The translations under genes were made by a program, and so were the position numbers. The notes below the pieces were generated by a model that saw only the letters and a program-made list of their open reading frames with translations, did no database searches and was not told the DNA's origin. A stretch of DNA of 64,000 bases. It comes from a virus. Its lineage: Duplodnaviria > Caudoviricetes. Within the stretch, counting starts at the first letter, position 1. Every line of letters begins with the position of its first letter. Below, in pieces: positions 10,733-33,434 of this stretch. The stretch spans positions 9,981-73,980 of IMG/VR virus record IMGVR_UViG_3300036778_000017; one strand, written 5' to 3'.

Positions 10733-10733
10733 G

Positions 10734-18001: not shown

Positions 18002-20164
18002 CTAGGCAGCAAGTAACTCAGGAGCCCGGCCCTTGCCGGGCTTTCTTGCGTCTGAGAACGGATACTTGGCCGTTCCCCACGTCTCGCCATACTCCTCGTC
18101 AACGCGCATCGGCACGCTGATTCTGATCGCGTTGCGCATTATCTCACCAATGGCCTGCCCGTCCTTCTCGCGTGTCAGCGAGAACGCGAGCTCATCGTGC
18201 ATCTGAAGCATCGGTATGAAGCCAGCCCGGGCGCACATGGCCATAGCCTTCTTCGTCTGGCGAGCAGCGGAACCCTGGATCAAGCGGTTCATCGCCTTGC
18301 GCGTGTCGGCACGGCGAAGCTTCTTGCCGAACCACGGATGGCCCTTGGTCTCGCAGCGCTCGAGCGCCTCCTCCAGTCGGCAGCTGTTCATGGCGAACTT
18401 GTACGCATAGCCGCGCCGCTTCTCCTCACGGTCCAGCCACTTCGGCTCAAAGTCATCGAAGTGCGATCGCGCCTTGTCGATCATGCGGATGTATCCGCGG
18501 TCCTCGGCATAGCCCTGACACAGCGCGTTCAGCTGCTTGACGAACGGCATCTCGCCGTCGTACTGCCCCATCACCTGCTCCGCCTCATCAAGCGTCATGC
18601 CGGTCATGGCAGCAAACTTCTTGACCCCCGCTCCGTACGCCTTCGCGAAGTTCACGTCCTTGGCGCGGCGTCGAGTGAGACCAGTCATCTCGACCACCAG
18701 ATTGTGGAAGTCGGTGTTCGGGTCACTCAGGTACTTGGCCACGGCCTCGTCGGCCTTCTTGCAGCCGAGTAGAGCAGCGTAGTGCACGATCAGGCGATAC
18801 TCCTGCTGCGAGTAGTCCGGAGCGAACCACAGCTGCCCCCTCTCCGGGAGGAACGCCATGCGCAGATACTTCGCGATCATCTCCGTCGTGTGCCAGCCCT
18901 CCACCGGGTCCGGCCGAGATGGCATCTGCTGAAGCGGGGGTTCCGAATAGCTGAACCGATGCGAGCGTGTTCCACCGTCCTCAGTCTTGAACTGATTGAT
19001 GTTGGCGTGTATGCGGCCCTCGTACACTGAGTTCTTGAGATACGCCCTGACGAACTTGGTCGCGGCCTCGTGGCACTGCTTCGCCTCTGCTATCGCCCGG
19101 GGCAGCGGATGCTCGGACGCGCGCATCCAGTCCTTGCTGAACTCAGTCTCTACCTCGCCGTCCTCGTCCTCGCCGCGCATGTACTCTTCTTCATCCACAC
19201 CGTGGACCTGACATGCCTGGATGAGCCATGACTTCTGGCGTATCTCGTCGATGGACACTCTCTGCTTCGTGATGTCGTATATCTTGTTGAGCGCGAATTG
19301 ATACTGCTTCATGAGCTCGTTCTCGAGCCAGTCCAGCCTCTCCTCGTTGACGCGGACACCACGCTTGCGCATGGCGTGCACCACCGGGATCAATTCCATC
19401 TCTAGATCGTAGGCACCTGTCAGGTCCTGCTCCTCGATCTGCGGTACCATCTTCTCGAATGCCAGCAAAGTCGAGCGCGCGTCCTGTTCGGCATACGGTC
19501 CCACGTATCTGGCTGGCATCTTGGCGAGATACTTCTTGACGTCGTCGCCCTTGTATCCGAAGCTGAACGCTGCGTCTCGCAGCATTGCCTCGTCCTTGCG
19601 CTCTACACCACACCACTCAGCAATGGAGTCCAGGCTGTACGCACTCTTCTGTCCCTTCTTGGCCCTGCGGTTCTCATCAATCATCATGGCCTGACAGCCG
19701 ATGTCATTGATGAACTCGTAGTCCGGTAGCTCGAGACCGAGGCCGCCGCTGTACTCTCCGGCGTTGAACCATCCTAGATCATATCCCGCGTTGCAGAAGA
19801 TGCGACGCTGTCCCTTCTTGGCCCTCAGCAGATGCTGGACCCACTTCTTGGCTCGCGAGCGATCGAAGCAGTTCGTGTCCGGATGTTCGATCGGCACGTA
19901 GATCGAGCGGACCTCTCCGCCCTGTCTCCATGCCGCTGACACACCGGCTATGTATCCTCCAGCTGAGCGAGAGTTGAACGCCCAGCCCGGTCCTGCTCCT
20001 CGTATTATACCATTGTCCAGTTCCTCGCTGTCTATCGCCACGTCCTGGACACGACTGAGGTCTGGCAGTTCCCCCGGCACGACCCAGCTGCTCTCTGGCG
20101 TTATCAGGGGCATCTGGCTCGGATCCAGCTTTGTTCTGCGCGGCTTGATGGATCTTGTCTTCAT
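18002..20164 (-). CDS. polA: DNA polymerase, family A (3'-5' exonuclease + polymerase)
   Basis: exo I AIDSE, exo II NAGYDL, exo III YAEQDA; motif A APDYSQQEYRL, motif B RRAKDVNFAKAYG, motif C LQMHDEL; start refined via ATGA overlap. Confidence 0.95.
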   Translation of the reverse strand: MKTRSIKPRRTKLDPSQMPLITPESSWVVPGELPDLSRVQDVAIDSEELDNGIIRGAGPGWAFNSRSAGGYIAGVSAAWRQGGEVRSIYVPIEHPDTNCFDRSRAKKWVQHLLRAKKGQRRIFCNAGYDLGWFNAGEYSGGLGLELPDYEFINDIGCQAMMIDENRRAKKGQKSAYSLDSIAEWCGVERKDEAMLRDAAFSFGYKGDDVKKYLAKMPARYVGPYAEQDARSTLLAFEKMVPQIEEQDLTGAYDLEMELIPVVHAMRKRGVRVNEERLDWLENELMKQYQFALNKIYDITKQRVSIDEIRQKSWLIQACQVHGVDEEEYMRGEDEDGEVETEFSKDWMRASEHPLPRAIAEAKQCHEAATKFVRAYLKNSVYEGRIHANINQFKTEDGGTRSHRFSYSEPPLQQMPSRPDPVEGWHTTEMIAKYLRMAFLPERGQLWFAPDYSQQEYRLIVHYAALLGCKKADEAVAKYLSDPNTDFHNLVVEMTGLTRRRAKDVNFAKAYGAGVKKFAAMTGMTLDEAEQVMGQYDGEMPFVKQLNALCQGYAEDRGYIRMIDKARSHFDDFEPKWLDREEKRRGYAYKFAMNSCRLEEALERCETKGHPWFGKKLRRADTRKAMNRLIQGSAARQTKKAMAMCARAGFIPMLQMHDELAFSLTREKDGQAIGEIMRNAIRISVPMRVDEEYGETWGTAKYPFSDARKPGKGRAPELLAA
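18023..18047 (+). terminator. intrinsic terminator-like hairpin
   Basis: agcccggc-cctt-gccgggct followed by ttctt. Confidence 0.6.
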
Positions 20165-20340
20165 CTGAACAGCTTGTCTAACAGAGGATACCACGCCACG
20201 CCGACGTAGATTATGAACGTGTACGTGATGTTGAACACCGTGACACTATTGGTCTTGCTGTGCACGTACAGAGGAATGACGATCGCAAAACCCGCGACCG
20301 TCACGTAGTAGTAAGCTCGTACGAGAGCCTCGATGATCAT
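20161..20340 (-). CDS. small membrane protein (59 aa; below the ORF track cut-off)
   Basis: hand translation MIIEALVRAYYYVTVAGFAIVIPLYV..FIIYVGVAWYPLLDKLFR; coupled to both neighbours. Confidence 0.65.
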   Translation of the reverse strand: MIIEALVRAYYYVTVAGFAIVIPLYVHSKTNSVTVFNITYTFIIYVGVAWYPLLDKLFR

Positions 20341-21410
20341 CAGTTGGGCTCACGCGCCCAGTGACTGAAGGTCTCAGACAGCTTGTACTTTCCGTCGCCA
20401 TCGTCCTGATAGTACATGAACTTGAAGTCCTGCCGACTCTCGTCGTACTCCTTCGAGTTCATCTCACGTATCAGCCTCGGGAAGTTATCGTCGATGCTCT
20501 CTGGAACGTGCTGCCTCTTGAGCGCCCAGCGATTGTCTTTTACGTACTCGTAGACATGCGCCAGTTCCCTCGGACAGTGGTGCGCCCCAACTATCGGCTC
20601 CAGCTGGTAGACACCAGATGCCCGCACCGTGTAGAACATGTCGGCCACTGCGCCGACCCTGATCTTCAGCGCGTCGTAGTACGGCTGGTCTATCACCCAC
20701 GGAACGAGGCTCTCGTGCTGCTCGCCACCATCCGGCCCCCGTTCCTCTCCGATATCCCTCGCAACCGTGGCGTCGTCGATGACGTCGGCGGTAGGCGGGG
20801 GCTCGGCAGGTGGATAGAACATGGCGCGAACTCGAGCCTCGACCTCCTCTCGAGACAAGCCCTTGTCGTCGGCTATCATCTGATACACGTCGGTTTCTGG
20901 CTGGTTGTACGTGGACTCGTATGTCCTGCTCTCAGGTTCTACGACGCCGCGTGATATCATCTCTGCCTCGACGAGAATGAGATATCTGCGAAGATCGCGA
21001 CACACCGCCAGCACCGTCCCGTCCTCACCCTTGGGCTTCTCCTCGATCTTTGCGAAGATATCCTCGGACGTCAGGCGATCCCTGAGCAACTCCAGGATCA
21101 TCATGGTCGCTTCGATGCTGCCCGGCAGATCTAACTTGATGCGCTGCCCGTAGTGAACGAAGTTGCGGAACGCGCCGATGGTGCAGTGAATGTTCTCCAT
21201 CGTCTTGACGTGATCTGGAAACTCCTTCGGAGCCATCATCACGAGCAACCGATCGATGTTGCGCTTGGCCATGAACCACGCGCTGCGACCGCCGCTCAGC
21301 TTCCAGCTTCCCTGATACGTCGCCTCCTTGTTCTCCAGCACGGCGCAGTCAGAGAGCGCCACGCTCTCGAGGAAGTTCATGTGGTCCATGTTATGTTCTT
21401 GTCGTGCCAT
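20340..21410 (-). CDS. Nmad1/DUF1599-like (MazG-fold) nucleotide-modification-associated protein with unknown C-terminal region
   Basis: KEATYQGSWKLSGGRSAWFMAKRNIDRL pattern; genomic context. Confidence 0.6.
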   Translation of the reverse strand: MARQEHNMDHMNFLESVALSDCAVLENKEATYQGSWKLSGGRSAWFMAKRNIDRLLVMMAPKEFPDHVKTMENIHCTIGAFRNFVHYGQRIKLDLPGSIEATMMILELLRDRLTSEDIFAKIEEKPKGEDGTVLAVCRDLRRYLILVEAEMISRGVVEPESRTYESTYNQPETDVYQMIADDKGLSREEVEARVRAMFYPPAEPPPTADVIDDATVARDIGEERGPDGGEQHESLVPWVIDQPYYDALKIRVGAVADMFYTVRASGVYQLEPIVGAHHCPRELAHVYEYVKDNRWALKRQHVPESIDDNFPRLIREMNSKEYDESRQDFKFMYYQDDGDGKYKLSETFSHWAREPN

Positions 21411-21966
21411 ACTCTGTCTCCATCTGGGTGCGTGTCTTCATGTAGCGGTGTATCGCCGGGATCAGTGACTCGTGATCCCGGTACTCCTTGGTGTCTCTCA
21501 TGCCCTCTAGATCGATGAGATTGGCAGACACGGCGTTCATCATGCGATCGATGATCGTGATGGCGTACTTGTTGCCCATGTTGTACTCGCGCCAGCCGTG
21601 CTCCCACATCTCGATGTTCTCGCATGCCTTGAACACGTGGCGCTCGAACTGTGAGAGTGGATGCTTCAGCTGAGGAACACCGATTCGCTCGTTCTGCAGC
21701 TTCTCCACGATGTTCTCGGCCTTCTGCATCGCAGGCCGGAGCTCGCCGATCATGATCTTGAACGGGTACGGTATGTCGCCGGCCATCTCGCCCATGTCGT
21801 GCTTCACCGTGTAGATCAGAATGTGACGTGGCGCTGATGGCCACACCGTTAGAATGATGCGCAGGATCTGCCACGAGTGCTCGCCTACGGACTGCTGATT
21901 ATGGACCGCCCACGTGTGATAGCGCCGGATTTCTCCTGACGCCCTCGGGTCCTCCGTGAGGTTCAT
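21391..21966 (-). CDS. HD-domain 5'-deoxynucleotidase-like (YfbR-like)
   Basis: IRRYHT..QSVGEHSW..KHDMGE..GDIPYP. Confidence 0.85.
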   Translation of the reverse strand: MNLTEDPRASGEIRRYHTWAVHNQQSVGEHSWQILRIILTVWPSAPRHILIYTVKHDMGEMAGDIPYPFKIMIGELRPAMQKAENIVEKLQNERIGVPQLKHPLSQFERHVFKACENIEMWEHGWREYNMGNKYAITIIDRMMNAVSANLIDLEGMRDTKEYRDHESLIPAIHRYMKTRTQMETEYGTTRT

Positions 21967-23030
21967 CGGGACCTCGGGTTCGTGCGATGCTCGAACCACT
22001 GGATGACAGCCTGTCGCCAGTCCTCGGCCTCGATCATGAACGCCATGTCGCGGGCGGAGTGGCGCATGGCAGACTTCCAGCGATTGTGCGCGATGAAGAT
22101 CGGCTCCGCGGTATTGCGGAACCATGAGTTCTTGTAGTCGTGCACCGTGGTCTCGACGCCCTCTGTCACGAGGTTCTTCTGCCACTCCATGAACTTCTTG
22201 AGATCAGCGTCGAAGAAGTCCCATTCCTTGGCCATGGGCAGCGCTCGGATCTTCAGGCCCTCGTAGGTGCTCAGTGTCGGCTCGGTCCCTACCTTCTCGA
22301 GCGTCTCCTCGTACGCGTGATAATTCCAGGACATCTGGTACATCTTGCCGACCAGCACGCCAACCCGGCCTGCCATGTACTCCTGCAAGATGCTGAAGTG
22401 AACGGCGTTGGCACCATACGCCCCGAGCACGATATCGTTGCTCCTGCACGAGATGAACATGTCCAGGAATGGCAACGGTTCGTCAGCGAAGACCTCCTTC
22501 CGAACCCGGAAGTAGACGTGAGTATTGCACGGCCGATCCTTCCAGACGCCATTCAGGTCGTTGGCTCCGTACTGAATATCGCACTCGCCGACCCTGCATC
22601 CCTGCTCGCGGGCATCCCACATCTGCAGAACGCACTGTCTGTCATCGTCCCTGAAGCGGAGGCGCTGAACGATGTGCTCCAGCTGATCGAAGCCCAGCGC
22701 CTGTCGCCATCGATGACCATACGCGCCGTGAACGCGGCCGTCCTCCTCGGCGAACCGAGTACCGAAGTCCGTGATGTATCTGTTCAGGGCGCTCACGTCG
22801 TCGCGCCCCGACAGCATCCATAGCGACTCGAACAGATGGAAGAACGGATTAGCCCCGCGCTTCTGGTCGAAGAGCACGCGCTGGGTCGGCTTGCGGTACA
22901 CGCTTGTCACCGGCATCGACATCACGCGCACCGGGCCGTTTCTGCTCGTCTCCCTTCGTCCCTCCGCGCCCATCAGACGCATGCCGCGCCAGTATAGCTC
23001 GTTGACGTCCTCACCCTCAATTACGTGCAC
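21963..23030 (-). CDS. thymidylate synthase-family enzyme, probable dUMP hydroxymethylase
   Basis: catalytic RPCN; RSND..GAN with Asn at the dUMP-specificity position; YHAY; linked to hmU kinase genes; start refined to GTG 23030. Confidence 0.85.
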   Translation of the reverse strand: MHVIEGEDVNELYWRGMRLMGAEGRRETSRNGPVRVMSMPVTSVYRKPTQRVLFDQKRGANPFFHLFESLWMLSGRDDVSALNRYITDFGTRFAEEDGRVHGAYGHRWRQALGFDQLEHIVQRLRFRDDDRQCVLQMWDAREQGCRVGECDIQYGANDLNGVWKDRPCNTHVYFRVRKEVFADEPLPFLDMFISCRSNDIVLGAYGANAVHFSILQEYMAGRVGVLVGKMYQMSWNYHAYEETLEKVGTEPTLSTYEGLKIRALPMAKEWDFFDADLKKFMEWQKNLVTEGVETTVHDYKNSWFRNTAEPIFIAHNRWKSAMRHSARDMAFMIEAEDWRQAVIQWFEHRTNPRSR

Positions 23031-23328
23031 TTGGTCCTCCTTCCTTGCTCTCCTGAATGATCTGATGCAGCGCTGCCGGAGTGGTCCGCGACATCTTGTC
23101 AATGTGCTTCGCGACCGCGTTGATGGTCTTGGTCTCCTGAAGATACAGCGTCTCATCGTAGGACAGCACTGTCACGTGCACCAGCCTCGCGACGATCTGC
23201 TCGACCGCGAATGCTATCATCTCCGGACACAGCCCCTCGAAGGTGTCGATCGCGTCGCATACCACCTGCTCAGCGTAGTCTTTTATGACCTGCTGCTTCT
23301 CAATGTCATCGATACATCTACACAGCAT
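23017..23328 (-). CDS. hypothetical protein
   Basis: coupled ORF between the UDG-like and TS genes. Confidence 0.6.
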   Translation of the reverse strand: MLCRCIDDIEKQQVIKDYAEQVVCDAIDTFEGLCPEMIAFAVEQIVARLVHVTVLSYDETLYLQETKTINAVAKHIDKMSRTTPAALHQIIQESKEGGPSARN

Positions 23329-23776
23329 TGTAGAGCTCCTCTAGGAGCGCTGCCACCAGCGCTCTGTTGTTCTCGTCATTGTACCAGAAATTCCTGCCGC
23401 TCGGATGCGGGATCTGCCGCCACGTCGAGCCCCCGATCACCTGCGGATGGAGCAGGAGGCGGGGGTGGCCGAACGCGGCGACTGTGTCAGCGCCGAGGAG
23501 GACGATGACACGACCACTTCCGAAGAACTCGCTGTACAGTCTGTCGGCTCCCTCACGAGCCATCTTCTTGTTGAAGATCCTTGCGTTCATGACGTTGCGC
23601 CTGTCGAAGCGATCGAGATACTGCTGACGGCGCACGTCAGGCACTCTCGTCTCGAGCATCTTGAACAGGCGATGTCCAGTGCATCCCTCAGGCGCTGGGA
23701 ACAGAGCATACTTGGGGTCGTCGTGAAGAGGATTGTTCATCCCGATCAGGACCGGTCTCTTGTCTACTTTCTTCAT
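23318..23776 (-). CDS. uracil-DNA glycosylase superfamily protein
   Basis: VLIGMNNP..TGHRLFKML..IVLLG..IPHPSGRNFWY; start refined to MKKVDK. Confidence 0.7.
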   Translation of the reverse strand: MKKVDKRPVLIGMNNPLHDDPKYALFPAPEGCTGHRLFKMLETRVPDVRRQQYLDRFDRRNVMNARIFNKKMAREGADRLYSEFFGSGRVIVLLGADTVAAFGHPRLLLHPQVIGGSTWRQIPHPSGRNFWYNDENNRALVAALLEELYNAV

Positions 23777-23827
23777 GCTCTTATTCTCGCCTGCCTCGTG
23801 TTCCGGTACAAGCAACCCCTGCGGGGC

Positions 23828-23836
23828 TGTGCATAA
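23828..23836 (-). promoter_or_regulatory. DnaA box (TGTGCATAA on +)
   Basis: within a 19-bp inverted copy of 1824-1842; about 50 nt upstream of the UDG-like start. Confidence 0.6.
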
Positions 23837-23839
23837 CTT

Positions 23840-24789
23840 TTACTTGAGACCCATGAAGATCAGGTTGTCAACGGCTACGCGTCTCTTGTCGTGCTTCAGG
23901 CCGAGGTCGTCCATTGCCTTGAAAAGCCTGATGGTCACGCGCCACGCCTGCTCGACCATCATCTGCTGTTGTGTGTCCTGAGGCTCCATGGAGTATTGAA
24001 TGGCCATCTCCCTCGCGATGGCTGGATCGAGCTCCTGTCTCACGACATTGCGATGCCAGTTCTCCAGCTGCGCTGCCAGAATGATTATGTTCATGTGATG
24101 CGCGATCGGTGGAAGGTCTGCAATCTTGATGCTAGTCATCTCAACAACTCCACGAGGCGTTCCATGTGATCAGCGGCGATCCTCGTTTTCTCGGCCGCGT
24201 ACTGTATCCTCTTCATGCTCATCTTTCGCGTGGCCAGCATGGTCACCAGCTGGAAGCCAGCCTCGCTGTGGACCTTGTGCGCGAGCACGAGCTCCTTCTC
24301 AATGTCTACTGGCGAACTCGCGGAGGAAGGATTTGTCTTCTTCCGAGAGGTCTTCTCTGTCGACTGCTCGAGCGACAAGCGCATCTGCCGCTCCGTCACC
24401 GTGGACGCGGTCGTAGAAGCGCTTTGCTTTTTCGACGCGACGCCTCTCGTGACGGTTCGTGCTCGTGACGTCCCTCCACGTGGTGTCTTCGCCTTGCTGG
24501 CCACGGTTGATCTTCTCCAGTTGTCTCTTGGCATTGACCCTGCGACGCTCCTTGTCGCTGAGCGTTGAGTAGCTCATCTGATAGAGACCTCCATTCCATT
24601 CACGATCATGATCTTTTCTCCAGAACCTCTCATGACGAACGCCTCGAATGTCTTGAGCTCCCACTGGAGCGCACCCTCGACGGCGTGCCGCTTCCCATCC
24701 TTGGTCTCGATCACTAGTCGCACGTCCTCAGACTGTCCGTTGGCGATCAGCCAGACCCTGAGTGCCTCCACTATCATGGAGAAATTCAT
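23840..24789 (-). other. three small hypothetical genes (23840-24139; one of the overlapping ORFs 24136-24534 / 24299-24664; 24574-~24789)
   Basis: minus-strand ORFs; frame choice in 24136-24664 is ambiguous. Confidence 0.45.
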
Positions 24790-25031
24790 GACGTCCTCCA
24801 CGGCAGGCTCTGGTCGAATGCCTTGCTGAAGTGTCGTATCCTGCAGACCTGGAAGTGCCTCTCTGCCTGTCGATCGAGACACCAGCCCACGATGTACCAC
24901 TGCGAGCCATCGTGAGGATAATACTTGCTCTCGAGAAACCGAATGCCGGTAGGCACCACGCGCCGTTCCTCGTCATATCCCTCGTGATTGACATAGTCGA
25001 ATGTCACGACTTTCCCGTCCCAGACGCTCAT
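24786..25031 (-). CDS. stand-alone WYL-domain protein
   Basis: VTFDYVNHEG..RRVVPTGI..QWYIVGWCLDRQAERHFQVCRI. Confidence 0.85.
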   Translation of the reverse strand: MSVWDGKVVTFDYVNHEGYDEERRVVPTGIRFLESKYYPHDGSQWYIVGWCLDRQAERHFQVCRIRHFSKAFDQSLPWRTS

Positions 25032-25367
25032 GTGTCGTCACCTCCTCTACACTCCTTGCAGATCCAGGCAGCCGTGCCCATCTGTGTCGTGTACATGTGA
25101 CACGAGCGCCATCGACGACAGCACTCGCACTCGATCTCGATCGGAGCCTTCGTGAGCCTGCTCATCGCGGCATCTCCATCACGAAGTAGACGTCGTCTGG
25201 CCGCTCAGCGATGGCTGTCTTCATGGCAGCTGACGCCTCCTTGGCCGTGGCGTGAGCCGATAGGAAGCGTGCCAGCACCACCCGGAACGGGAACTCCTTG
25301 TCCGGTCTGCGTTGCGTGGCAGCTACCTTCTTCGCAACGGCCTTCTTGTTCACCTTGGGCTTCTTCA

Positions 25368-25964
25368 TCACTTCCTCCCCAGAAGCAGAATGTGCCAGTT
25401 GCCGCCGCGAAACAGGACCGTCTCCTCGACGTCCCATCCCAGCTGCCTGATCAGGGCCAAGAACGGACGCTTGGCGTGCTCCGACGTGTTCGACTTCGGC
25501 AGGTACTTCTCGCCGAAGCGAATGGTGCACACGATGTTCTTCTTGGCGACGCGGCAGATCTCCTTTACCGTGGCACGCATGCCGTCCTGATCGATCAGGT
25601 CCAGAAAGCGCACGCAGATCACCATGTCTGCCGACTTGTCCTTCACCTCTAGGTTCGTGGCAGATCCCTGCTCCAGCTGAATGTGCTTCGCCTTGGCCCC
25701 GCGAAGTTTCTTCTTGGCGAGGTCGAGCATCGCCTCGCTGATATCGATGCCGAGCACCGTGCACGATGCCTTCGCATAGTCCTCGAAGAACCGGCCGGTT
25801 CCCACTGGAACGTCCAGGACTGTCCTTGGTTTCAGCTCCGCGATCCACGCTCCAACCGTCTCGTTCTCGAGGTTCCAGCGCGCCTGCTTCTTGCGAATGT
25901 CCTCGTACGTCTCGGCCTTGCGGCCGCGATACTTCTTGCTCGTCTGCTGCAGACTGACCATCAC
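25368..25964 (-). CDS. class I SAM-dependent methyltransferase
   Basis: motif I VLDVPVGTGRF; GIDISEAML; GSATNL; ADMVICVRFL. Lacks DPPY/NPPY/PC DNA-MTase motifs. Confidence 0.9.
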   Translation of the reverse strand: MMVSLQQTSKKYRGRKAETYEDIRKKQARWNLENETVGAWIAELKPRTVLDVPVGTGRFFEDYAKASCTVLGIDISEAMLDLAKKKLRGAKAKHIQLEQGSATNLEVKDKSADMVICVRFLDLIDQDGMRATVKEICRVAKKNIVCTIRFGEKYLPKSNTSEHAKRPFLALIRQLGWDVEETVLFRGGNWHILLLGRK

Positions 25965-26506
25965 TCATCTCCATCGTGCGGCCCGAGCCACCGCCTGATC
26001 ACCTCGAAGCAGGCGTCTCGGTCGCCCACCACTGTCTCGCAGTGAAAGTTCACCGCGTCTCGGTGAACCTTGTCGTACGTCTTCTTGATCGACTTCTCGG
26101 CGATCCTGTGCCCACGCTTGCGCACGTCTCTGAGGCACGTGGCCACGTCCGTGTTGAGCACGACGACGCGAACTTCGAACTTCTCAGCCACGAGCTCGTT
26201 GACACGAGCCACGCCATCGCTCATGTTCTTCCCCTCCATGATGACGTCGTGGCCAGACCGAGCCGCCCAGCGCGCGATCTCGTATGCCTCGTCAAGCGAC
26301 TTCAGCGTGTCGATGCCCCCGTTCGCAATCTGGTAGTGACCGGGGGTCACGAGACACTTCCCAGCGACGGTTCGGCCGTGCAGCGTGTACAGCGGCTTGA
26401 CGCGAGGCGGAGCCATGAGATCGCGATGCTTCGTGTAGAGCGCCACGACGCGTCGCACCAGATGGCTCTTGCCGGAGCCAGATGTTCCCCTGACTGATAT
26501 GATCAT
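25961..26506 (-). CDS. P-loop kinase, 5-hmU DNA kinase P-loop domain-like
   Basis: IISVRGTSGSGKS Walker A; GGIDT; VIMEG; CLRDVRKRG lid; next to the helical kinase partner. Confidence 0.8.
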   Translation of the reverse strand: MIISVRGTSGSGKSHLVRRVVALYTKHRDLMAPPRVKPLYTLHGRTVAGKCLVTPGHYQIANGGIDTLKSLDEAYEIARWAARSGHDVIMEGKNMSDGVARVNELVAEKFEVRVVVLNTDVATCLRDVRKRGHRIAEKSIKKTYDKVHRDAVNFHCETVVGDRDACFEVIRRWLGPHDGDE

Positions 26507-27498
26507 AGCCCTGCCGCCAGCCTCGCCTTGTCCAGTTGGTCCACGAGGCGAATGTAGAAGTCGCCACGGTTCCACTCGCGACGCTGCTCCCTGCCGATGT
26601 CCTCGCGATTGGCCATGAAGCGCTTCACGTCGATTGCCTTGCTGACCACGTACGGATCGGGATTGAACCCGGCCTTGCGAAGCATGCTGCCCGACTCTGG
26701 CTGGAACACCATCGGCAGTCCCGCGCTCAGCATCTCGTAGAACCGATTGGCCGGCGAGTGGAACTCCTCGCTGGACTTGCGGTCCTCGATGTACAGGCCG
26801 AGGCCAAACGAGCCGAGCGCACCGTAGAAGTTCTCGCCGATGGCTCCCATGTGCCGACACAGCGGATACTTCTTGGCGAACTTGTCTACCGGACTACTGA
26901 TCACAGTCTCGACCGCAGGGCGAGTGAAGTAGCGATCGAACAGCGGCACGCGACTAGACTTGCCGCTCCCGTCGCGGAACGAGCCGTAGTACAGAAGCGT
27001 GTCCTTGGCATCGGCGCGCCGCTTCTTGATCTTGCTCTCGCTGTACTGCTGGTCGAACGTCAGCATGTTCCAGTTGACGTAGTGACTGCCGGGCAGCGTG
27101 TACCACTTCTCGCACGTGCTCCAGAAGATCGTGCGCTCCTTCCCCTCCTTCTTTCGCGTGACGAACGCCTTGCGGAATGGTGACTCGGCACCAGCATCGT
27201 CCTTCGGCGGGATGATGGTGTAGTCGTTCTGGACCCACACCACGCGCTTCGCACCGAGGATCGCTCGAGACAGAGGCTCAAGAACCTTGCTGAACCCATA
27301 CGCGCCGTTCACTATGATCAGCACGTCTAGGTTCGTCATGTCGCCGATCTCAGCACCGCACACCAGCGGAATGTCAGACATGGTCATGTCGCCGAGTGTC
27401 TTCTGCAGCCAGCGCGCTATTCGCACGCTCGCGACCATGCTGTTCTCGCTGATGCGCACGAAACTGAACATCGCGATTTTCTTCTTTCTACCCGCCAA
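26503..27498 (-). CDS. GT-B glycosyltransferase, T4 beta-glucosyltransferase-like
   Basis: LDVLIIVNG..F, VWVQND, LLYYGSFR and SPANRFYEMLSAGLPMVF parallel T4 BGT segments as recalled (DRLIVVNS, LRVWETMAS); TTG start with GGAGG RBS. Confidence 0.75.
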   Translation of the reverse strand: MAGRKKKIAMFSFVRISENSMVASVRIARWLQKTLGDMTMSDIPLVCGAEIGDMTNLDVLIIVNGAYGFSKVLEPLSRAILGAKRVVWVQNDYTIIPPKDDAGAESPFRKAFVTRKKEGKERTIFWSTCEKWYTLPGSHYVNWNMLTFDQQYSESKIKKRRADAKDTLLYYGSFRDGSGKSSRVPLFDRYFTRPAVETVISSPVDKFAKKYPLCRHMGAIGENFYGALGSFGLGLYIEDRKSSEEFHSPANRFYEMLSAGLPMVFQPESGSMLRKAGFNPDPYVVSKAIDVKRFMANREDIGREQRREWNRGDFYIRLVDQLDKARLAAGL

Positions 27499-27507
27499 TT
27501 CTTCCTC

Positions 27508-27672
27508 CTACCCGCTGAGTGTTTCAGTTGCCGCCCCGACGTACTGTTCCCAGCTGTCGTCAGGTATCTTGAGAATGATGACCCTGAGCCAAGTCCAGTG
27601 CAACATCTCGACTGGATTGATCAGCTTGTTCTTGTGATCATCAATCAACTTCAGTGCTTCTTCCTTTGTCAT
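27508..27672 (-). CDS. small hypothetical protein (54 aa)
   Basis: hand translation MTKEEALKLIDDHKNKLINPVEMLHWTWLRVII..; coupled to the upstream ORF. Confidence 0.6.
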   Translation of the reverse strand: MTKEEALKLIDDHKNKLINPVEMLHWTWLRVIILKIPDDSWEQYVGAATETLSG

Positions 27673-27908
27673 CTCTTGAATTCCCACGTACAGGTCGCCT
27701 TGTCGCCCGGGCGAACGTCAGGCTTGTTGTCACAGCGCACGGCGGTTCGGCTGTCCACGAACGTGATCCACCAGCCGTCCGATACCTCCCTAGTGCTGGC
27801 GTCCGGCCCCGTGCCTCCGGCCCACTCAGTCCGGAAGCGCTCGACGACGTCCTTCACCGTGCAGACCTGCACGTACTGCGTGATCTTCTCGCTCACTACC
27901 TCAGGCAC
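27669..27908 (-). CDS. hypothetical protein
   Basis: 79 aa, overlaps both neighbours. Confidence 0.6.
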   Translation of the reverse strand: MPEVVSEKITQYVQVCTVKDVVERFRTEWAGGTGPDASTREVSDGWWITFVDSRTAVRCDNKPDVRPGDKATCTWEFKR

Positions 27909-28881
27909 GATACACTCCTCTTGGCTTGCCCTCCTTCAGGCGAACACGCTCGTACTTGTCGAACTCACAGAGCGTGTGCTCCACGTCACGCATCTCCCAG
28001 TCCGGCCACTCCTTCTTCGTCATGCCCATGGCCACGCGCATCCGGCTCCAGTGCTCGGCTCTGGAGCTCTCGTCCAGGATCACTACCATGTACTTCAGCA
28101 TCTCGTCGCGTCCGCTGAACTTCGCGGTCTTGTCGCGGCCCATCACGCGGTTCAGCCCCCGCTTGCACCCGGGACCGGGGGATGCCCACGTGTCGATGTC
28201 GTTCGCCTTGTTGAGCAGGAATGTGTGACGCAGGTCAGTCACGATCTCGTACGAGTGGAAGTTGCCGAAGTATGGCTGCTCGCGCAGCCACTCCCAAGCC
28301 CCCTCGAGACTGTACTCGTTTCTTCGTGGATTGTCGTTCAGCCAGTGCCGCCAGTCGCTCTTCCTCCAGAAGTTCTGCAGGACCCAGAGCACGCCGTCCA
28401 GCTTCGTCATGCCAGCCGGCGAGGAGATGATGTAGGCACCAGTCACGTACGGACCGCGCGGCGTTCTGCTCACCAGCGCGCGCTTCAGCGGCCTGACGTC
28501 GCCCCTCGCAGCGAACTCCTCGAAGGCGCCGAAACCCTTCTTGAGATCATTGTCCTGGAACATCGCAACGCCACTCTCGATCCTGTTCAGCATGCGAAAC
28601 ACGACGGTCGCGAGCAGAACGCGCTCGTCCTTGTTCCTGTGCAGCGGCCCGCGAACGTTGTCTGCGAACCACTTGGTTGTCTTGTCCAGCTCCCGGAAGA
28701 CGTTGGTGAACCGGAAGCGGTAAAGGATAGGATCATCAGTCTCCCACTGCGGTCGCAGTCGCTTGTAGAGATAGATCTGGTGACGGGCCTGCGCGTAGTT
28801 GAAGAAGCGACGCAGGCCCTCTCTCGGCAGCTTGATCTCCTTCACTTCTTCCTCCACGCACCGAGGTTCTGCCGACGCCAC
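27901..28881 (-). CDS. 5-hmU DNA kinase helical domain protein (aGPT-Pplase1 family)
   Basis: WETDDPILYRFRFTNVFRELDK..FGNFHSYEIVTDL..GPGCKRGL..DVEHTLCEFDKY. Confidence 0.85.
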   Translation of the reverse strand: MASAEPRCVEEEVKEIKLPREGLRRFFNYAQARHQIYLYKRLRPQWETDDPILYRFRFTNVFRELDKTTKWFADNVRGPLHRNKDERVLLATVVFRMLNRIESGVAMFQDNDLKKGFGAFEEFAARGDVRPLKRALVSRTPRGPYVTGAYIISSPAGMTKLDGVLWVLQNFWRKSDWRHWLNDNPRRNEYSLEGAWEWLREQPYFGNFHSYEIVTDLRHTFLLNKANDIDTWASPGPGCKRGLNRVMGRDKTAKFSGRDEMLKYMVVILDESSRAEHWSRMRVAMGMTKKEWPDWEMRDVEHTLCEFDKYERVRLKEGKPRGVYRA

Positions 28882-29737: not shown

Positions 29738-30211
29738 CTATCCGAGCGGCCCGAGTACCAAGAAGTGAGTTGGATGAACCTCGATCTCGTACCACTCGTC
29801 GTTCGTCATCGACCACTTCCCAGCGAGGAAGCAGCCTCCAACTTCCTTCGAGTGCGGGCTGTCGCCAGCACCATCCTGCCAGTACCCCATCCCGTATCCC
29901 TCCGTGTTGCAGTCGAGGTCCACGAGCTCTGGGGCCTGCAGAAACAACTCTGCCTGATACTTGTCGCGGAGTTCCTCGATGGGATGCCACGGCAGGATGT
30001 CCGGCTTGTTGCCCTTCATCTCCGAGACAGCCATCTCGAATAGTCTCTGGTGATCAGGCCCAACGAGCTCGTCGGGGACACCGCCGAAGTGCAGGATCAC
30101 CTGACGCCATGTCGTGTCGAGCGCGCGACGGTACACGTTGTTCAGCGGGCGGTTCTGGACCTCCGCCCGCCAGCGCTCGACGGCCCAGATCAAGTGGACG
30201 CTTGTCGTCAT
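29738..30211 (-). CDS. hypothetical protein
   Basis: ATGA overlap with the exonuclease gene. Confidence 0.6.
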   Translation of the reverse strand: MTTSVHLIWAVERWRAEVQNRPLNNVYRRALDTTWRQVILHFGGVPDELVGPDHQRLFEMAVSEMKGNKPDILPWHPIEELRDKYQAELFLQAPELVDLDCNTEGYGMGYWQDGAGDSPHSKEVGGCFLAGKWSMTNDEWYEIEVHPTHFLVLGPLG

Positions 30212-30747
30212 ACCAAGTTACCTCTCAGTTTCTTGTGGCCCATGCTCACGCACAGTACCTGATGCTTGCAGTCGGCAAGCGCGTTGTGATACGTTCCCTG
30301 TCGCTTGATCGAGAACGTGTTGAGGCCGGACACTCGATAGATCGTGCGCGTGTCCTGCGCCTCGTGGAAACGCCACGGCTGTTTCTTCCCCAGCGCTCGA
30401 TAAACCCAGGACAGAAGTGGCTCGTCGAAGTTCGCGCCCTGCGACCAGAACCATCGACCACCGCGACCGAAGAACACCGCGAACTTCTCGACGACCTCCT
30501 CGATGGGTAGCTGTCCCTCGGACAACTGCTTGTTCGCGAGCGCGTGCTCCGGCTTGGCCCAGAATGCCACTGTGCCCTCCTCCTTGTACATCTTCAGCTT
30601 CTTGCACGAGGTCTCCGTGATGTTGCAGTAGAACTCGTCGCCCAGCTGCCCTGTCTCCGGATCGAAGAACACGGCACCGAGGCTGCGGATCATGGAGCCC
30701 GGCGAGGTGCCCCACGTCTCGAGATCTACCATTACGTCGTTCAGCAT
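30208..30747 (-). CDS. DEDDh 3'-5' exonuclease (Rv2179c-like)
   Basis: VMVDLET, WSQGANFD, DTRT, HNALADC. Confidence 0.9.
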   Translation of the reverse strand: MLNDVMVDLETWGTSPGSMIRSLGAVFFDPETGQLGDEFYCNITETSCKKLKMYKEEGTVAFWAKPEHALANKQLSEGQLPIEEVVEKFAVFFGRGGRWFWSQGANFDEPLLSWVYRALGKKQPWRFHEAQDTRTIYRVSGLNTFSIKRQGTYHNALADCKHQVLCVSMGHKKLRGNLV

Positions 30748-30760
30748 TTCGTTCTCCTGT

Positions 30761-32329
30761 TCAGACCCACTGACACTCGTTCTCGGTCTGTGATGCCACT
30801 ATGGTTAGACGCTGTCGCGCCCGGGTTACTCCGACGTACCAGACTCGCCTCTCGTCGTCGGGGTTCTTGTCGACCTCCTTCGCCGTGCGGTACGCCATCT
30901 CTGTCATGAGAACGACGTGGTCCGCCTCAGCGCCCTTGGCCGAGTGAATGGTGGACAAGCGCACGCGAGGCGCATGCCGCAGTTTCTCACCGCGTCGCCG
31001 CGCGGCGAGCAGATAGCTCATGTCGGCGCCGGGCAGCCGGTCCAGCGCCTCGTGCCAGATCTTGTTCGGCGTCATGAGAAGGCCGCCGTAGTTGATCAGG
31101 TCCTTCATGGAGATCGCGAGCTCCTCGTCATCGCCGAAACCCTGAAGCCCCTTGTATCCGTGCTTCACCTGCACCGTGTCGCCGACCTTCGGGCTGATCA
31201 TGCTGTACATCGCGCGGGCGTCTCCGAGAAGCACGTGCTTCCCGGCTCGCAACCTCTCCCACGTCTCGGCTGCCCGCAGCGCGTTCATGGGTATCGAGCT
31301 CTTGCCGTTCATCTCATACACAATCCCCCGCTCGCGCATGATCGGCTCGACCTGTTCTCGAAGAATGTACTGGTTTCTGGCGAGCACCAGAACGGGGGCC
31401 GTCGGGGAGTCGTCGCGCCACTTGTCGTTGACGTCTGCGTCGTCGATCTCGGCCACGCGCTCGATGGTTCCCTTCCCCTTGCGGGCCGCCCACTCCTTCT
31501 CTCTGCGATGCCGCAGTCCCATGATGATGCCGGCCGACACGCGCTGTATCTCCTTCGGGCATCGCCATGACTGCCCGAGTACTGACACCGTGCCGTCCAT
31601 GCTCACGAACGTCTCGATGTCGGCACCAGCCCATCGGTAGATGGCCTGATCATCGTCGCCGGCCACCACCACGCGCCTGACACCGTCCGCCAGCTGGAAG
31701 ATCACGCGCCACTGAAGATGTGATAGATCCTGCGCCTCGTCGACGAGGAGCACGTCTAGGTTGAGCCTGATGCCGGACGCCACGAACTTGCTGAGCATGT
31801 CCGTGTAGTCTATCAGCGCCTTGTCCTTCTTGTAGATGGCCAGCGCCCTCGACACTCGGTCAACCTCGACCCAAGGCAGACCGTCGTCGTCCTCGTCGTA
31901 CAGGGCGCGGAGCGGTATGCCGCGGATACGCGACAGGTTCTCCATGAACAGAATGCGATCCCCGAGCTCGAAGTTCGACATGATGCCGTCGTTGGACCAA
32001 GCCCGACCCGTCACCTCGACGCCCGCGAACTCTGCGAACTCGTTGAGGGCAGGCCCAGCCAGAACCTGAGCCGATCTCAGGCCCAGCTGGCGAAAGCACA
32101 TGCTGTGAATGGTCTGGAAGTAGGGCAGGTCGTCCTTCTCCAGACCGAAGCGCTTCATGGCTCGCGTCCGAGCCTCCTCCGCTGCGCGCTGAGTGAAGGA
32201 GACGTAGCCGATACGGTTCGGCTTCGTCCCCCTCGCCAACTCCTCGTCGAGGATGTTCAGCAGCGTCGTCGTCTTTCCGGTGCCTGGAGGCCCGAGGACG
32301 ATGTCTGGGAAGAACTCACTCACGCGCAC
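30761..32329 (-). CDS. UvrD/Rep-family SF1 helicase
   Basis: GPPGTGKT, TIHS, VDEAQD, GDDDQAIYRWAGA, STIHSAKGAEAD, YVGVTRA. Confidence 0.95.
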   Translation of the reverse strand: MRVSEFFPDIVLGPPGTGKTTTLLNILDEELARGTKPNRIGYVSFTQRAAEEARTRAMKRFGLEKDDLPYFQTIHSMCFRQLGLRSAQVLAGPALNEFAEFAGVEVTGRAWSNDGIMSNFELGDRILFMENLSRIRGIPLRALYDEDDDGLPWVEVDRVSRALAIYKKDKALIDYTDMLSKFVASGIRLNLDVLLVDEAQDLSHLQWRVIFQLADGVRRVVVAGDDDQAIYRWAGADIETFVSMDGTVSVLGQSWRCPKEIQRVSAGIIMGLRHRREKEWAARKGKGTIERVAEIDDADVNDKWRDDSPTAPVLVLARNQYILREQVEPIMRERGIVYEMNGKSSIPMNALRAAETWERLRAGKHVLLGDARAMYSMISPKVGDTVQVKHGYKGLQGFGDDEELAISMKDLINYGGLLMTPNKIWHEALDRLPGADMSYLLAARRRGEKLRHAPRVRLSTIHSAKGAEADHVVLMTEMAYRTAKEVDKNPDDERRVWYVGVTRARQRLTIVASQTENECQWV

Positions 32330-32762: not shown

Positions 32763-32973
32763 GCTTCTTCCTCTCTGCGATGATTGCCTGCACCAGCGGA
32801 CACTCCACCAGCCTCACGGCCCTCGTTCTCGCGCACAGATCCGTGATGGTCCTGCGCGCATACTCCTCGGCCTCTCGATGAACCTGCTCCATCGAGGACT
32901 GGTCCGTCCAGTTCTCCAGCGCGATGTCGAGCTCGACGGTCACCTGAACCTTCGCCCTCACAGATGTCACCAT
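32755..32973 (-). CDS. hypothetical protein
   Basis: coupled small ORF. Confidence 0.55.
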   Translation of the reverse strand: MVTSVRAKVQVTVELDIALENWTDQSSMEQVHREAEEYARRTITDLCARTRAVRLVECPLVQAIIAERKKHG

Positions 32974-33434
32974 GTCATGAGCCTCCTTATGTCACCCGTG
33001 GTGTGAATGGTCACCTCCAGCGGGCGCGGGTCCAGCGCCATCGGCAGAAGCCAGTTGAGATTGCCGATCTGCGGAAACTTCTGGTTCCGCGGGTCGCACC
33101 ACTCCAGCGTCTCGTTGCTGTCATTGATCGTCGGCGCGATGTACGACCCCGTGATGGTGCACCTGAAGAAGTACACGCGATAGCCCGGGCCGTTCTCGAT
33201 CGCGAACAGATCCCACTTGTCCGTGTTCAGCTGTGCCTCCTCGTCGAACTCCCGCCTCATGGCATCGTACGCCGTCTCGCCCGGCTCCATCTGACCGCCG
33301 ATGGCGTTCATGAAGCCCTTCTGCCACGACGGTTGCTCCTTGCGCACGAGCAGGACCATGTCGCGATAGAGCAGAAAGCCCGCCACGTACTGGCGGAAGC
33401 CCTCCTCGCCCTCCTTGGGATGCTTCTTTGTCAC
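32967..33434 (-). CDS. NUDIX hydrolase
   Basis: Nudix box GGQMEPGETAYDAMRREFDEEAQL. Confidence 0.92.
   Translation of the reverse strand: MTKKHPKEGEEGFRQYVAGFLLYRDMVLLVRKEQPSWQKGFMNAIGGQMEPGETAYDAMRREFDEEAQLNTDKWDLFAIENGPGYRVYFFRCTITGSYIAPTINDSNETLEWCDPRNQKFPQIGNLNWLLPMALDPRPLEVTIHTTGDIRRLMTW

Follow-up and report, generated by a model that had tools for sequence, protein, structure and literature searches.

The comparison set for thymidine hypermodification comprised the Pseudomonas phages PaMx11 and M6 (Mesyanzhinovviridae), Salmonella phage ViI, Delftia phage PhiW-14 and Bacillus phage SP10 (PMC8989533); their clusters are described by Lee et al. 2018 and 2021 and in PMC8989533. In clusters of the PaMx11/M6-type a TS homologue of the dUMP-hydroxymethylase type is followed by an HD nucleotidase, and a P-loop 5-hmdU DNA kinase is accompanied by an HMUDK_hel/clade 1 protein. 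Both features recur in the cassette reported here, which is located on the minus strand of the 74-kb genome (73,980 bp; CheckV completeness 96%) of an uncultured phage from a single soil metagenome. The cassette encodes a TS homologue, an HD nucleotidase, HMUDK_hel, a glycosyltransferase (GT), a P-loop kinase and a SAM methyltransferase (MTase), and, like the PaMx11/M6-type clusters, it is flanked by the genes for UvrD helicase and PolA. The window, i.e. the whole stretch of DNA analysed, has 64,000 nucleotides. All five genes named in the original prediction were recovered in place on the minus strand.

The TS homologue (21963..23030, minus strand; PF00303 9e-19, phrog_5131 7e-87) is the only TS-family gene of the genome. 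Its ORF is open from 21963 to 23156 with GTG 23030 as the likely start, preceded by a AAGGAGGA ribosome-binding site. Alignment to E. coli ThyA showed conservation of C146, R166, S167, D169 and N177. A TS-family enzyme with the dUMP-type Asn had been predicted, and the PF00303 match, N177 and the motif CRSNDIVLGAYGAN bear this out. The protein shares 38% identity with its homologues from PaMx11 and from M6-like phages, and its nearest cultured homologues all come from hmU-hypermodifying phages. At an ATGA overlap the TS stop codon meets the ATG of the HD-domain 5'-deoxynucleotidase gene (YfbR-like; 21391..21966, minus strand; PF12917 9.7e-5). Its product is a homologue of PaMx11 gp52 and scored 8e-59 with a local HMM seeded with the HD proteins of PaMx11 and IME392. 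5hoC pathways, too, are marked by a nucleotide kinase gene clustered with those of a GT and a TS homologue (PMC13326640), and the TS homologue might be a 5-hydroxy-dCMP synthase serving cytosine glycosylation of the RB69, DLP3 and RL38JI type, or else a plain thymidylate synthase. Yet D169N, the mark of 5-hydroxy-dCMP synthases, is missing, residue 177 is the uracil-type Asn instead of the cytosine-type Asp, the kinase is homologous to the DNA-base kinase gp49 and not thymidylate-kinase-like, and an HMUDK_hel gene is present. A plain thymidylate synthase is at odds with position 143, which is Asp as in the hydroxymethylases, shared with T4 gp42 and PaMx11 gp51, and not Leu as in ThyA. We give hardly any credence to either identity.

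The GT (26503..27498, minus strand; 331 aa), a predicted DNA hmU glycosyltransferase, had no match in Pfam, PHROG or NCBIfam, and none of its 473 metagenomic homologues bears a name. The AlphaFold model (pLDDT 93.6) has a GT-B fold. T4 BGT was the top solved match with Foldseek (E 6.5e-9) as well as with VIA-align (Z 19.8, 288 residues, rmsd 3.9), where T4 AGT (Z 16.8) and other GT-B enzymes (Z ≤16.5) came next. The motifs YYGSFR..R and NRFYE align with S189/R191/R195 and R269/E272 of BGT, respectively, and the strand-end D83 aligns with D100, which we take to be the catalytic Asp; this equivalence comes from the sequence alignment and published work on BGT rather than from superposition of the active sites. 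The predicted resemblance to T4 beta-glucosyltransferase is thus upheld by fold and motifs at a sequence identity of about 14%. The UDP-binding and catalytic-Asp motifs are invariant in 39 homologues. 5hmU in DNA can be glucosylated by T4 BGT itself (PMC4111573).

In 46 viral loci with GT identities of 24-68% the genes follow the order hel-(MTase)-GT-(rSAM)-(kinase)-TS-HD, the core of which is hel-GT-TS. Because three complete genomes with HMUDK_hel, GT and TS carry no kinase and the closest relatives of this phage have no MTase, kinase and MTase are accessory to this core. MTases were seen in kinase-bearing loci only (5/11 lineages with a kinase vs 0/6 without; Fisher about p 0.08, worked by hand on our own grouping of the loci), and one lineage has a kinase::MTase fusion. 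In some loci the GT is joined by a PfkB sugar kinase and by further glycosyltransferases of the DNA type (TAGT PF20691), and the genes of distant GT homologues immediately follow those of a Tet_JBP dioxygenase and a ParB-like protein, the dioxygenase being the second known route to hmU (PMC13229309). If the target of GT and/or MTase were not DNA but, for example, a surface glycan of the host, a protein or a small molecule, virion DNA would contain only hmU or 5-PmdU. This would fit the generic small-molecule type of the MTase and a large survey, in which most phage GT contigs were not beside base-modification genes (bioRxiv 10.1101/2023.12.21.572611). We consider it very improbable, as the nearest solved structures to the GT are the two T4 DNA glucosyltransferases, the GT is kept between HMUDK_hel and TS over wide divergence, related loci combine it with TAGT and with Tet_JBP, and kinase and MTase are fused in one lineage.

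Further ORFs accompany the cassette on the minus strand. A conserved 356-aa protein between the HD gene and PolA (20340..21410) had no match in Pfam, PHROG or NCBIfam and occupies the equivalent position in 27 related loci. In the MTase-TS interval a conserved 165-aa protein (23318..23815; phrog_12275 1.6e-19), also found in the closest related loci, gave a weak match to the UDG superfamily (0.034). Two small overlapping ORFs of 59 and 79 aa fill the interval between HMUDK_hel and GT (27508..27908), and the 79-aa ORF recurs in close relatives.

The original prediction had recognised no amino-acid:DNA transferase (AADT), PLP decarboxylase or radical SAM gene in the window. Profile searches extended these absences to the whole 73,980-bp genome, where ADDT PF18724, Aminotran_1_2 and Radical_SAM as well as TAGT and Tet_JBP gave no match. 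ADDT PF18724 was found in 0/10 complete related GT-bearing genomes, with PaMx11 as a positive control at 3e-29, and no homologue of the PaMx11 FAD lyase was found in related loci. The preserved gene order in dozens of viral contigs and the 0/10 count for ADDT support the proposal of a thymidine-hypermodification cassette with a BGT-like GT-B enzyme in the AADT slot of characterised phages. HMM searches of all ORFs of the full genome had been suggested as a check; apart from the missing ADDT they returned HMUDK_HMUD1 at only 0.029 and HMUDK_hel (PF18723) at 4.3e-39, which exceeds the cut-off.

The HMUDK_hel protein (27901..28881, minus strand; formerly aGPT-Pplase clade 1) is a helix-hairpin-helix protein with 45% identity to PaMx11 gp50. 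The top PDB match of its model (pLDDT 87.8) was the 5-PmdU glycinyltransferase PUGT, PaMx11 gp46 (8z2m; Z 10.3); HhH DNA glycosylases came next. F208, D216, C305, E306 and K309 are invariant. Because of this best match and the invariant Cys305, the absence of an AADT holds for clade 2 (PF18724), while an AADT-like protein is present. The modelled structure makes HMUDK_hel a paralogue of the amino-acid:DNA transferase that would have kept the catalytic cysteine, and not simply half a kinase. With this cysteine it may perform chemistry outside the model favored below. For instance, the kinase could produce 5-phosphomethyl-dU, Cys305 of HMUDK_hel could attack C6, expel the phosphate and add an unspecified nucleophile, and GT and MTase could tailor that group or leftover hmU. 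All AADT-type clusters likewise have HMUDK_hel alongside the kinase, and weak profile alignments place its C305, F208 and D216 on C247, W146 and D153 of PUGT (E 0.22 and 0.053, not significant), where C247 is catalytic and W146 stacks on the base (PMC11472151). On the other hand HMUDK_hel has Glu or Gln aligned with K150, the donor-glycine-binding Lys of PUGT, and amino-acid transfer in vitro did not require the clade 1 protein of M6 (PMC8989533). Moreover, HMUDK_hel would find no phosphate leaving group in those complete hel+GT genomes that have no kinase. Substitution of this kind therefore appears rather unlikely.

The GT-kinase-MTase triad was predicted to be translationally coupled, and the overlaps were confirmed: the kinase start overlaps the GT stop codon in an ATGA, and kinase and MTase genes overlap in GTGA or TGATG. 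The P-loop kinase (25961..26506, minus strand; Walker A GTSGSGKS) is a homologue of the 5-hydroxymethyluracil DNA kinase (5-HMUDK) PaMx11 gp49 with 35% identity (E 1e-29). Its Pfam scores were weak (AAA_33 4.8e-6 and the HMUDK_HMUD1 value given above), and those of gp49 are just as weak. Of the two 5-hmU kinase halves that had been proposed as separate genes, the P-loop kinase stands as a gp49 homologue and the helical half is unnecessary for activity: M6 gp54 alone phosphorylates hmU DNA and so does the SP10 kinase domain alone (PMC8989533). The MTase (25368..25964, minus strand) is a class I SAM methyltransferase of the small-molecule type (Methyltransf_25 2.4e-19). Its relatives in PDB and NCBIfam are generic and far under curated cut-offs, and such matches give no hint of the substrate.

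The kinase-linked GTs form one stable crown group (label shuffles with as few changes: 0/500), and those of this phage's type carry a DGSGKSS insert between two phosphate-binding arginines. Together with the overlap of GT and kinase genes this could mean that the acceptor of the GT is the phosphate of 5-PmdU; the thymine methyl would then carry a sugar-1-phosphate diester (glycosyl-phospho-hmU), to be methylated by the MTase. Certain GT-B enzymes do accept phosphate-type nucleophiles, for example glycogen phosphorylase and SenB, the latter one of the structural matches of the GT (Z 15.2). Yet only part of the kinase-linked GTs has the insert, and neither the presumed general-base Asp nor the UDP motifs differ between homologues linked to a kinase, homologues without one and those linked to Tet/JBP, which argues for a single type of acceptor, a hydroxyl, in the whole family. 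Transfer to the phosphate is therefore decidedly improbable.

We favor, with slightly better than even confidence, a rewriting of thymine in two stages, in which TS-made hmU is glycosylated on DNA by the GT and a phosphate/methyl branch is added. Gene identities, folds, motifs, couplings, absences and co-occurrence are observations, from which we infer acceptor, donor, order of steps and final chemistry. Before replication the TS homologue would convert dUMP to 5-hydroxymethyl-dUMP, the HD nucleotidase would help to lower competing dTMP, and hmU would enter DNA instead of T through kinases of the host or the phage and through the phage PolA. On the polymer the inverting BGT-like GT-B enzyme would take a host UDP-sugar and, with Asp83 as general base, glycosylate the 5-hydroxymethyl group to a base-J-like O-glycosyl-hmU; it would fill the role played in the M6, PaMx11 and ViI pathways by the amino-acid:DNA transferase. 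HMUDK_hel accompanies the GT throughout and probably serves to flip the hmU base out or to activate it. Kinase and MTase, which share the GT message, may add the branch, most likely by phosphorylation of hmU sites (less likely of the sugar) and O-methylation of phosphate or sugar. Direct glycosylation of hmU by the GT would leave the kinase without an obvious purpose and three complete genomes have none, so its role here is guesswork. Sequence cannot decide between glycosyl-hmU, glycosyl-phospho-hmU and a methylated form; the most likely product is glycosyl-hmU with phosphate/methyl elaboration. In line with the original prediction, no publication describing a thymidine pathway of kinase, GT and MTase was found in the literature. 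Because the cassette joins these three enzymes without the amino-acid transferase of every characterised pathway, the DNA of this phage probably carries a base of undescribed chemistry.

With T4 BGT and AGT, which act on 5-hydroxymethylcytosine in DNA, the locus shares the GT-B fold, the UDP-binding motifs GSFR..R and R..E, the strand-end Asp and a GT gene near a TS-family hydroxymethylase. Unlike T4 BGT, the GT lies outside Pfam; the base supplied is hmC there and hmU here, and T4 has no base kinase, AADT paralogue or MTase coupled as here to the GT. Base J of kinetoplastids (JBP1/2 thymine hydroxylase and JGT) shares the predicted O-glycosylation of 5-hydroxymethyluracil in DNA and, through distant members of the GT family, the neighborhood of Tet/JBP dioxygenases. 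Here, by contrast, a TS-type enzyme would make hmU as a nucleotide, the GT belongs with the GT-B, BGT-like enzymes and not with the JGT family, and kinase and MTase are added. The 5-hydroxycytosine pathways of RB69, DLP3 and RL38JI (PMC13326640) likewise cluster a P-loop kinase and GT-B glycosyltransferases with a TS homologue and add sugars on the DNA polymer; in those, however, the TS homologue bears D169N and uses dCMP, the kinase is a nucleotide kinase resembling thymidylate kinase, and an HMUDK_hel gene is absent. Phage clusters of Tet/JBP (5mYOX) and GT (Burke 2021; Pyle 2024; PMC13229309) also combine base hydroxymethylation with subsequent glycosyl transfer, and TAGT-type GTs join this phage's GT family in loci L023 and L049; their hydroxylation is post-replicative with mostly cytosine products, and the dioxygenase is absent from this window. 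In contrast to the PaMx11/M6-type clusters, the cassette has no clade 2 AADT, Aminotran_1_2 PLP or radical SAM gene. The AADT slot is filled by the BGT-like GT-B enzyme and the SAM methyltransferase, and the expected product would be a sugar and/or phosphate derivative where PaMx11 and M6 make an amino-acid-derived amine.

The cassette is part of a window that covers 64 kb of a single viral contig of 73,980 bp, which is listed as linear by IMG/VR and was rated 96% complete by CheckV. The window has a GC content of about 60% and carries most of its genes on the minus strand. Genes were assigned by same-strand calls together with HMM searches of six-frame ORFs; a greedy longest-ORF map chose wrong-strand ORFs at a GC content of 60%. 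No cultured phage proved close: a search of 50,697 phage records by Megablast, with the 6.9-kb region as query, gave no match. By PolA, the nearest cultured relatives were HTVC023P-type pelagiphages and PaMx11-like Pseudomonas phages with 32-34% identity. A search of sequencing runs for the phage returned one match, a soil metagenome that probably is its source, and listed no RNA run.

From high to low coordinates the minus strand encodes a UvrD helicase (30761-32329), an Rv2179c-like exonuclease (30208-30747), three small genes without assigned function, HMUDK_hel (hereafter hel, 27901-28881; PF18723, E 4.3e-39), two small ORFs, a 331-aa orphan assigned as a glycosyltransferase by predicted structure and motifs (GT, 26503-27498), a P-loop kinase homologous to PaMx11 gp49 (25961-26506) and a SAM methyltransferase (MTase, 25368-25964; Methyltransf_25, E 2.4e-19). 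Five short ORFs follow, then a thymidylate synthase (TS) homologue recognised by its ThyA-type alignment (21963-23030), an HD nucleotidase (21391-21966), a 356-aa protein without assigned function (20340-21410), which keeps this position next to HD and PolA across 27 related loci, and PolA (18002-20194). A 165-aa protein on the same strand (23318-23815; phrog_12275) is conserved with the cassette; it has a weak match to the UDG superfamily and no meaningful match in the PDB. The stop of GT and the start of the kinase overlap in ATGA, the stop of the kinase and the start of the MTase in GTGA or TGATG, and TS and HD again in ATGA. The frame of the MTase was chosen by GC3 values and gene overlaps, the alternative frame at 25162-25974 being without matches. 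Every element of the gene list in the original prediction is thus present, each in its place.

The 42 codons 5' of the likely TS start (23031-23156) are Arg-rich, lack homology and overlap the end of an ORF at 23017-23328; the longest-ORF start of TS at 23156 is probably wrong. Upstream of the cassette we noted a NUDIX hydrolase (32967-33434), which could help to clear the dTTP or dUTP pool, a protein with an archaeo-eukaryotic primase domain (33909-35531) and a Pam3 gp34-like protein (35596-36672).

The GT was identified only through structure prediction. It belongs to no recognised sequence family, searches of Pfam, PHROG and NCBIfam yielding none even at an E of 5, and its 473 homologues in metagenomes are all unnamed. 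The AlphaFold model, for which 40 of the metagenomic homologues were used, had a mean pLDDT of 93.6. Foldseek of this model against the PDB returned six entries of T4 beta-glucosyltransferase (BGT) first (best E 6.5e-9, TM 0.62-0.66), among the matches the D100A mutant with bound UDP-glucose (1NZD), followed by T4 alpha-glucosyltransferase (AGT). VIA-align against PDB representatives gave a Z of 19.8 for BGT (288 of 322 residues, rmsd 3.9), 16.8 for AGT and at most 16.5 for other GT-B enzymes. By hhalign the similarity to T4 BGT reached an E of 0.016 and was confined to the C-terminal domain. Hhalign and MAFFT aligned YYGSFR166...R174 of the GT with GGS189-F-R191-SGQ-R195 of BGT, N-R243-FY-E246 with L-R269-VW-E272, and VQN-D83-Y with LFT-D100-I. 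We take S189, R191, R195, R269 and E272 of BGT to be ligands of the UDP phosphates and D100 to be the general base; the GT residues aligned to these sites are invariant across the GT family. Thus both fold and motifs bore out a BGT-like GT-B enzyme, as the original prediction had proposed. A diverged amino-acid:DNA transferase (AADT) was rejected as an identity of the GT because BLASTP found no similarity to the AADT of PaMx11. The GTs of the window phage and its closest relatives (loci L005-L008 and L023) contain a P-loop-like insert, DGSGKSS, at about residues 167-173 (window 26950-27010), between the arginines aligned to BGT UDP-phosphate ligands; other family members are without it.

The TS homologue, the only TS-family gene of the genome, was aligned with E. 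coli ThyA, T4 gp42, PaMx11 gp51 and the homologue from the cultured coliphage vB_EcoM_IME392. The catalytic Cys146, R166, S167, D169 and G173 are retained, and the alignment shows the motifs PC(146)N, RSND(169) and GAN(177). At position 177 the enzyme has Asn, T4 dCMP hydroxymethylase Asp; at position 143 it shares Asp with T4 gp42 and PaMx11 gp51, while ThyA has Leu. In the TS family N177 is the substrate determinant with Asn specifying uracil, position 143 has been linked to hydroxymethyl versus methyl product, and D169N to 5-hydroxy-dCMP synthases (PMC13326640, 2026). Cys146, Asn177 and a residue other than Leu at 143 are thus all present, and from its sequence we read the TS homologue as a putative dUMP hydroxymethylase. 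The closest cultured homologues are in M6- and PaMx11-like phages (38% identity). A 5-hydroxy-dCMP synthase was rejected as D169 is retained.

The P-loop kinase carries a Walker A motif, GTSGSGKS, at residues 7-14. It aligned over its full length with PaMx11 gp49 (35% identity, E 1e-29), which is listed as a 5-hydroxymethyl-dU DNA kinase (5-HMUDK) in Table 1 of PMC8989533. In Pfam the kinase yielded generic P-loop matches, and its score with HMUDK_HMUD1 (PF18748), 14.3 bits, was below the gathering cut-off of 27. PaMx11 gp49 likewise stayed below at 18.1 bits, so the model is insensitive for the gp49-type clade. By its full-length identity to gp49 the protein is, at the level of sequence, a real homologue of 5-HMUDK.

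Comparison with PDB and NCBIfam did not narrow the substrate class of the MTase. The GT loci contain two unrelated MTase families, both confined to loci with a kinase, and in L036 and L037 kinase and MTase form one protein of 378 aa. In L037 (IMGVR_UViG_3300028840_000575; 9760-10896), as in L036, the fused protein combines a 5-HMUDK-type P-loop kinase with a SAM methyltransferase of class I; its MTase part and a stand-alone gene at L025:4399-5028 are members of one family. The fusion shares its cluster with hel, a GT and two radical SAM enzymes, one of the B12 and one of the SPASM type. Gene overlap, fusion and co-distribution all link MTase and kinase.

The original prediction took hel for the helical half of the kinase. 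The Pfam part of this assignment held: hel matched PF18723, a family once named aGPT-Pplase clade 1, with 135 bits against a gathering cut-off of 25. Its role as a kinase half is opposed by published data: hydroxymethyluracil (hmU) DNA is phosphorylated by purified M6 gp54 alone and also by SP10 gp186 reduced to its kinase domain, the C-terminal part being removed, and the clade 1 protein gp55 of M6 is dispensable for amino-acid transfer (PMC8989533). The predicted structure also pointed elsewhere. The model of hel (pLDDT 87.8) had an all-helical fold resembling HhH glycosylases, and its best solved match was PUGT, the 5-phosphomethyl-dU glycinyltransferase gp46 of PaMx11 (8z2m; Z 10.3, 221 residues). 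Queuine-salvage DUF2419 and HhH DNA glycosylases came next, with Mag1, Ogg and EndoIII at a Z of 8-9; Foldseek with the same model found no match at an E of 0.001 or better. A comparison of 17 hel sequences, all taken from loci with a GT, showed F208, D216, C305, E306 and K309 to be invariant, and C305 stands in the context E/Q-H-x-L-C-E-F-D-K. Weak colinear profile alignments placed F208 and D216 on W146 and D153 of PUGT and C305 on C247, hhalign putting the C305 region on PUGT 237-250 at an E of 0.22. For PUGT, a role as catalytic nucleophile has been described for C247, stacking on the flipped base for W146 and metal binding for E243 (PMC11472151); the Glu and the Cys belong to an E-x-x-L-C motif. 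K150, the PUGT Lys that holds the glycine donor, has Glu or Gln as its counterpart in the hel alignment. Profile-profile alignment of hel with AADT yielded only short stretches below significance (E 0.22 and 0.053), so structure was required to reveal the relationship. From the structural match, the invariant residues and the replacement of K150, hel is best described as a paralogue of AADT with a predicted, probably competent, Cys-containing base-flipping pocket and a donor site that would be different or absent.

Searching IMG/VR with an alignment of GTs yielded 46 loci with 24-68% identity, which were annotated by iterated HMM searches of six-frame ORFs. The layout hel-(MTase)-GT-(radical SAM/SPASM)-(kinase)-TS-HD is conserved, and nearly every GT locus with enough flanking DNA also has hel and TS. 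The AADT profile ADDT (PF18724; aGPT-Pplase clade 2) found nothing in 10 complete GT-bearing genomes and in E. coli phage IME392; the PaMx11 control scored 3.3e-29. Because the kinase profile gave nothing in three complete genomes with hel, GT and TS, the kinase is accessory. In a tree of the GTs the kinase-linked members form one crown group, which includes the window phage, and the kinase-less lineages are basal or sister to it; none of 500 shuffles matched this clustering of the kinase label.

In L038 and L039, the loci of the most distant GT homologues, the GT immediately follows a ParB-like gene and a Tet_JBP dioxygenase (PF12851, E 6.9e-18; Pfam-checked in L039); by BLAST clustering only, L050 has the same clusters in the same order. 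This context has been assigned to phage thymine dioxygenases, producers of 5hmU (PMC13229309, 2026). Standing beside both TS-type and Tet_JBP-type hmU genes, the GT family is tied to hmU that is made by two independent routes. The GTs of L038, L039, L050 and L049 have 24-30% identity and an adjoining terminase, with no hel or TS gene nearby; in L049 a TAGT glycosyltransferase accompanies the GT, as do two radical SAM enzymes.

Add-ons in other loci comprise radical SAM-SPASM and B12-radical SAM enzymes, a second GT, TAGT (PF20691) and a PfkB sugar kinase. At L023:7105-10114 a PfkB-family sugar kinase with an HldE-like N-terminus precedes the GT and TAGT (PF20691) follows it, an arrangement that points to decoration of a two-sugar or heptose type in this lineage. 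Genes resembling homing endonucleases (GIY-YIG; NUMOD3) are located between hel and GT in L005, L006 and L014. In IME392 (L001; MH719082.1, 26744-43787) a related cluster, annotated as hypothetical throughout, encodes an MTase, a 302-aa protein, a BCCT betaine/choline transporter, a PIG-L deacetylase, a 344-aa protein, the GT homologue, hel, an AAA_28 P-loop protein, TS and HD. As a cultured phage IME392 offers a tractable model for the GT pathway family.

On the simplest reading the GT would be a DNA hmU O-glycosyltransferase with BGT-like inverting chemistry. T4 BGT itself is reported to be able to glucosylate 5hmU in DNA (PMC4111573). Kinase-linked, kinase-less and dioxygenase-linked GTs did not differ in the catalytic Asp or in their UDP motifs, which argues from sequence, short of proof, for the same hydroxyl acceptor throughout the family and against a phosphate acceptor. 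That these motifs are the same with or without a kinase also counts against a GT that builds a sugar-phosphate diester, which we regard as distinctly unlikely. For the kinase and the MTase we favor a phosphate-based branch in view of gene overlap, fusion and co-distribution: hmU sites or the sugar would be phosphorylated and then methylated. That hel, with its predicted AADT-like pocket, instead displaces the phosphate with an unspecified nucleophile seems rather improbable to us. The virion DNA may carry a thymine derivative made by the kinase-GT-MTase trio that keeps the phosphate in the final base; we offer this tentatively, as a possibility on the doubtful side. The candidates would be a methyl-phosphate ester of hmU or glycosyl-phospho-hmU, a sugar-1-phosphate diester, possibly beside base-J-like glycosyl-hmU. 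The base kinase would then build part of the final structure, beyond supplying a leaving group. We know of no description of a phosphodiester-linked or methyl-phosphorylated nucleobase at the thymine methyl. The predicted product is likely a chemically new base, and the GT family is large.

To our knowledge, every understood thymidine hypermodification proceeds from hmU via a kinase and an amino-acid (or diamine) transferase to tailoring. The cassette and its approximately 470 metagenomic relatives would represent a second large branch, in which a T4-like DNA glycosyltransferase takes the place of the transferase, with or without a kinase. The original prediction had recognised no AADT, PLP decarboxylase or radical SAM gene in the window, and this absence extended to the whole 74-kb genome: ADDT stayed without a match even with E allowed up to 10, and profile searches found no Aminotran_1_2, Radical_SAM or TAGT and no Tet_JBP (PF12851), dCMP deaminase or dUTPase. 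Metavirome surveys have reported GT-B genes close to ThyS genes and left them uncharacterised (bioRxiv 10.1101/2023.12.21.572611), and our literature search found no description of a thymidine pathway combining 5-HMUDK and a glycosyltransferase. Thymine derivatives of the predicted kinds bear on the evasion of restriction and CRISPR systems, on DNA glycosylase defences against modified bases, on failed sequencing or amplification of phage DNA and on new enzymatic tools for 5hmU labelling. The widespread HMUDK_hel gains a testable role as a predicted AADT-like, Cys-bearing base-flipping partner independent of the kinase.

The 5-hydroxycytosine pathways of RB69, DLP3 and RL38JI differ from the window cassette in TS signature and kinase type. 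Base J chemistry is known from kinetoplastids. The window phage may work likewise, via glycosyl-hmU, but uses neither JBP nor JGT: the genome lacks PF12851, and the GT is a BGT-like GT-B enzyme. If glycosyl-hmU is indeed the product, base J chemistry would be widespread among phages of soil and water and would be reached by way of a different enzyme. The version with kinase and MTase could give a phosphate-bearing base of an unseen kind. The clusters of PaMx11 and M6 have TS, HD, kinase, hel and genome position in common with the window cassette; yet where these phages possess AADT and its tailoring enzymes, the cassette has a BGT-like GT and an MTase instead.
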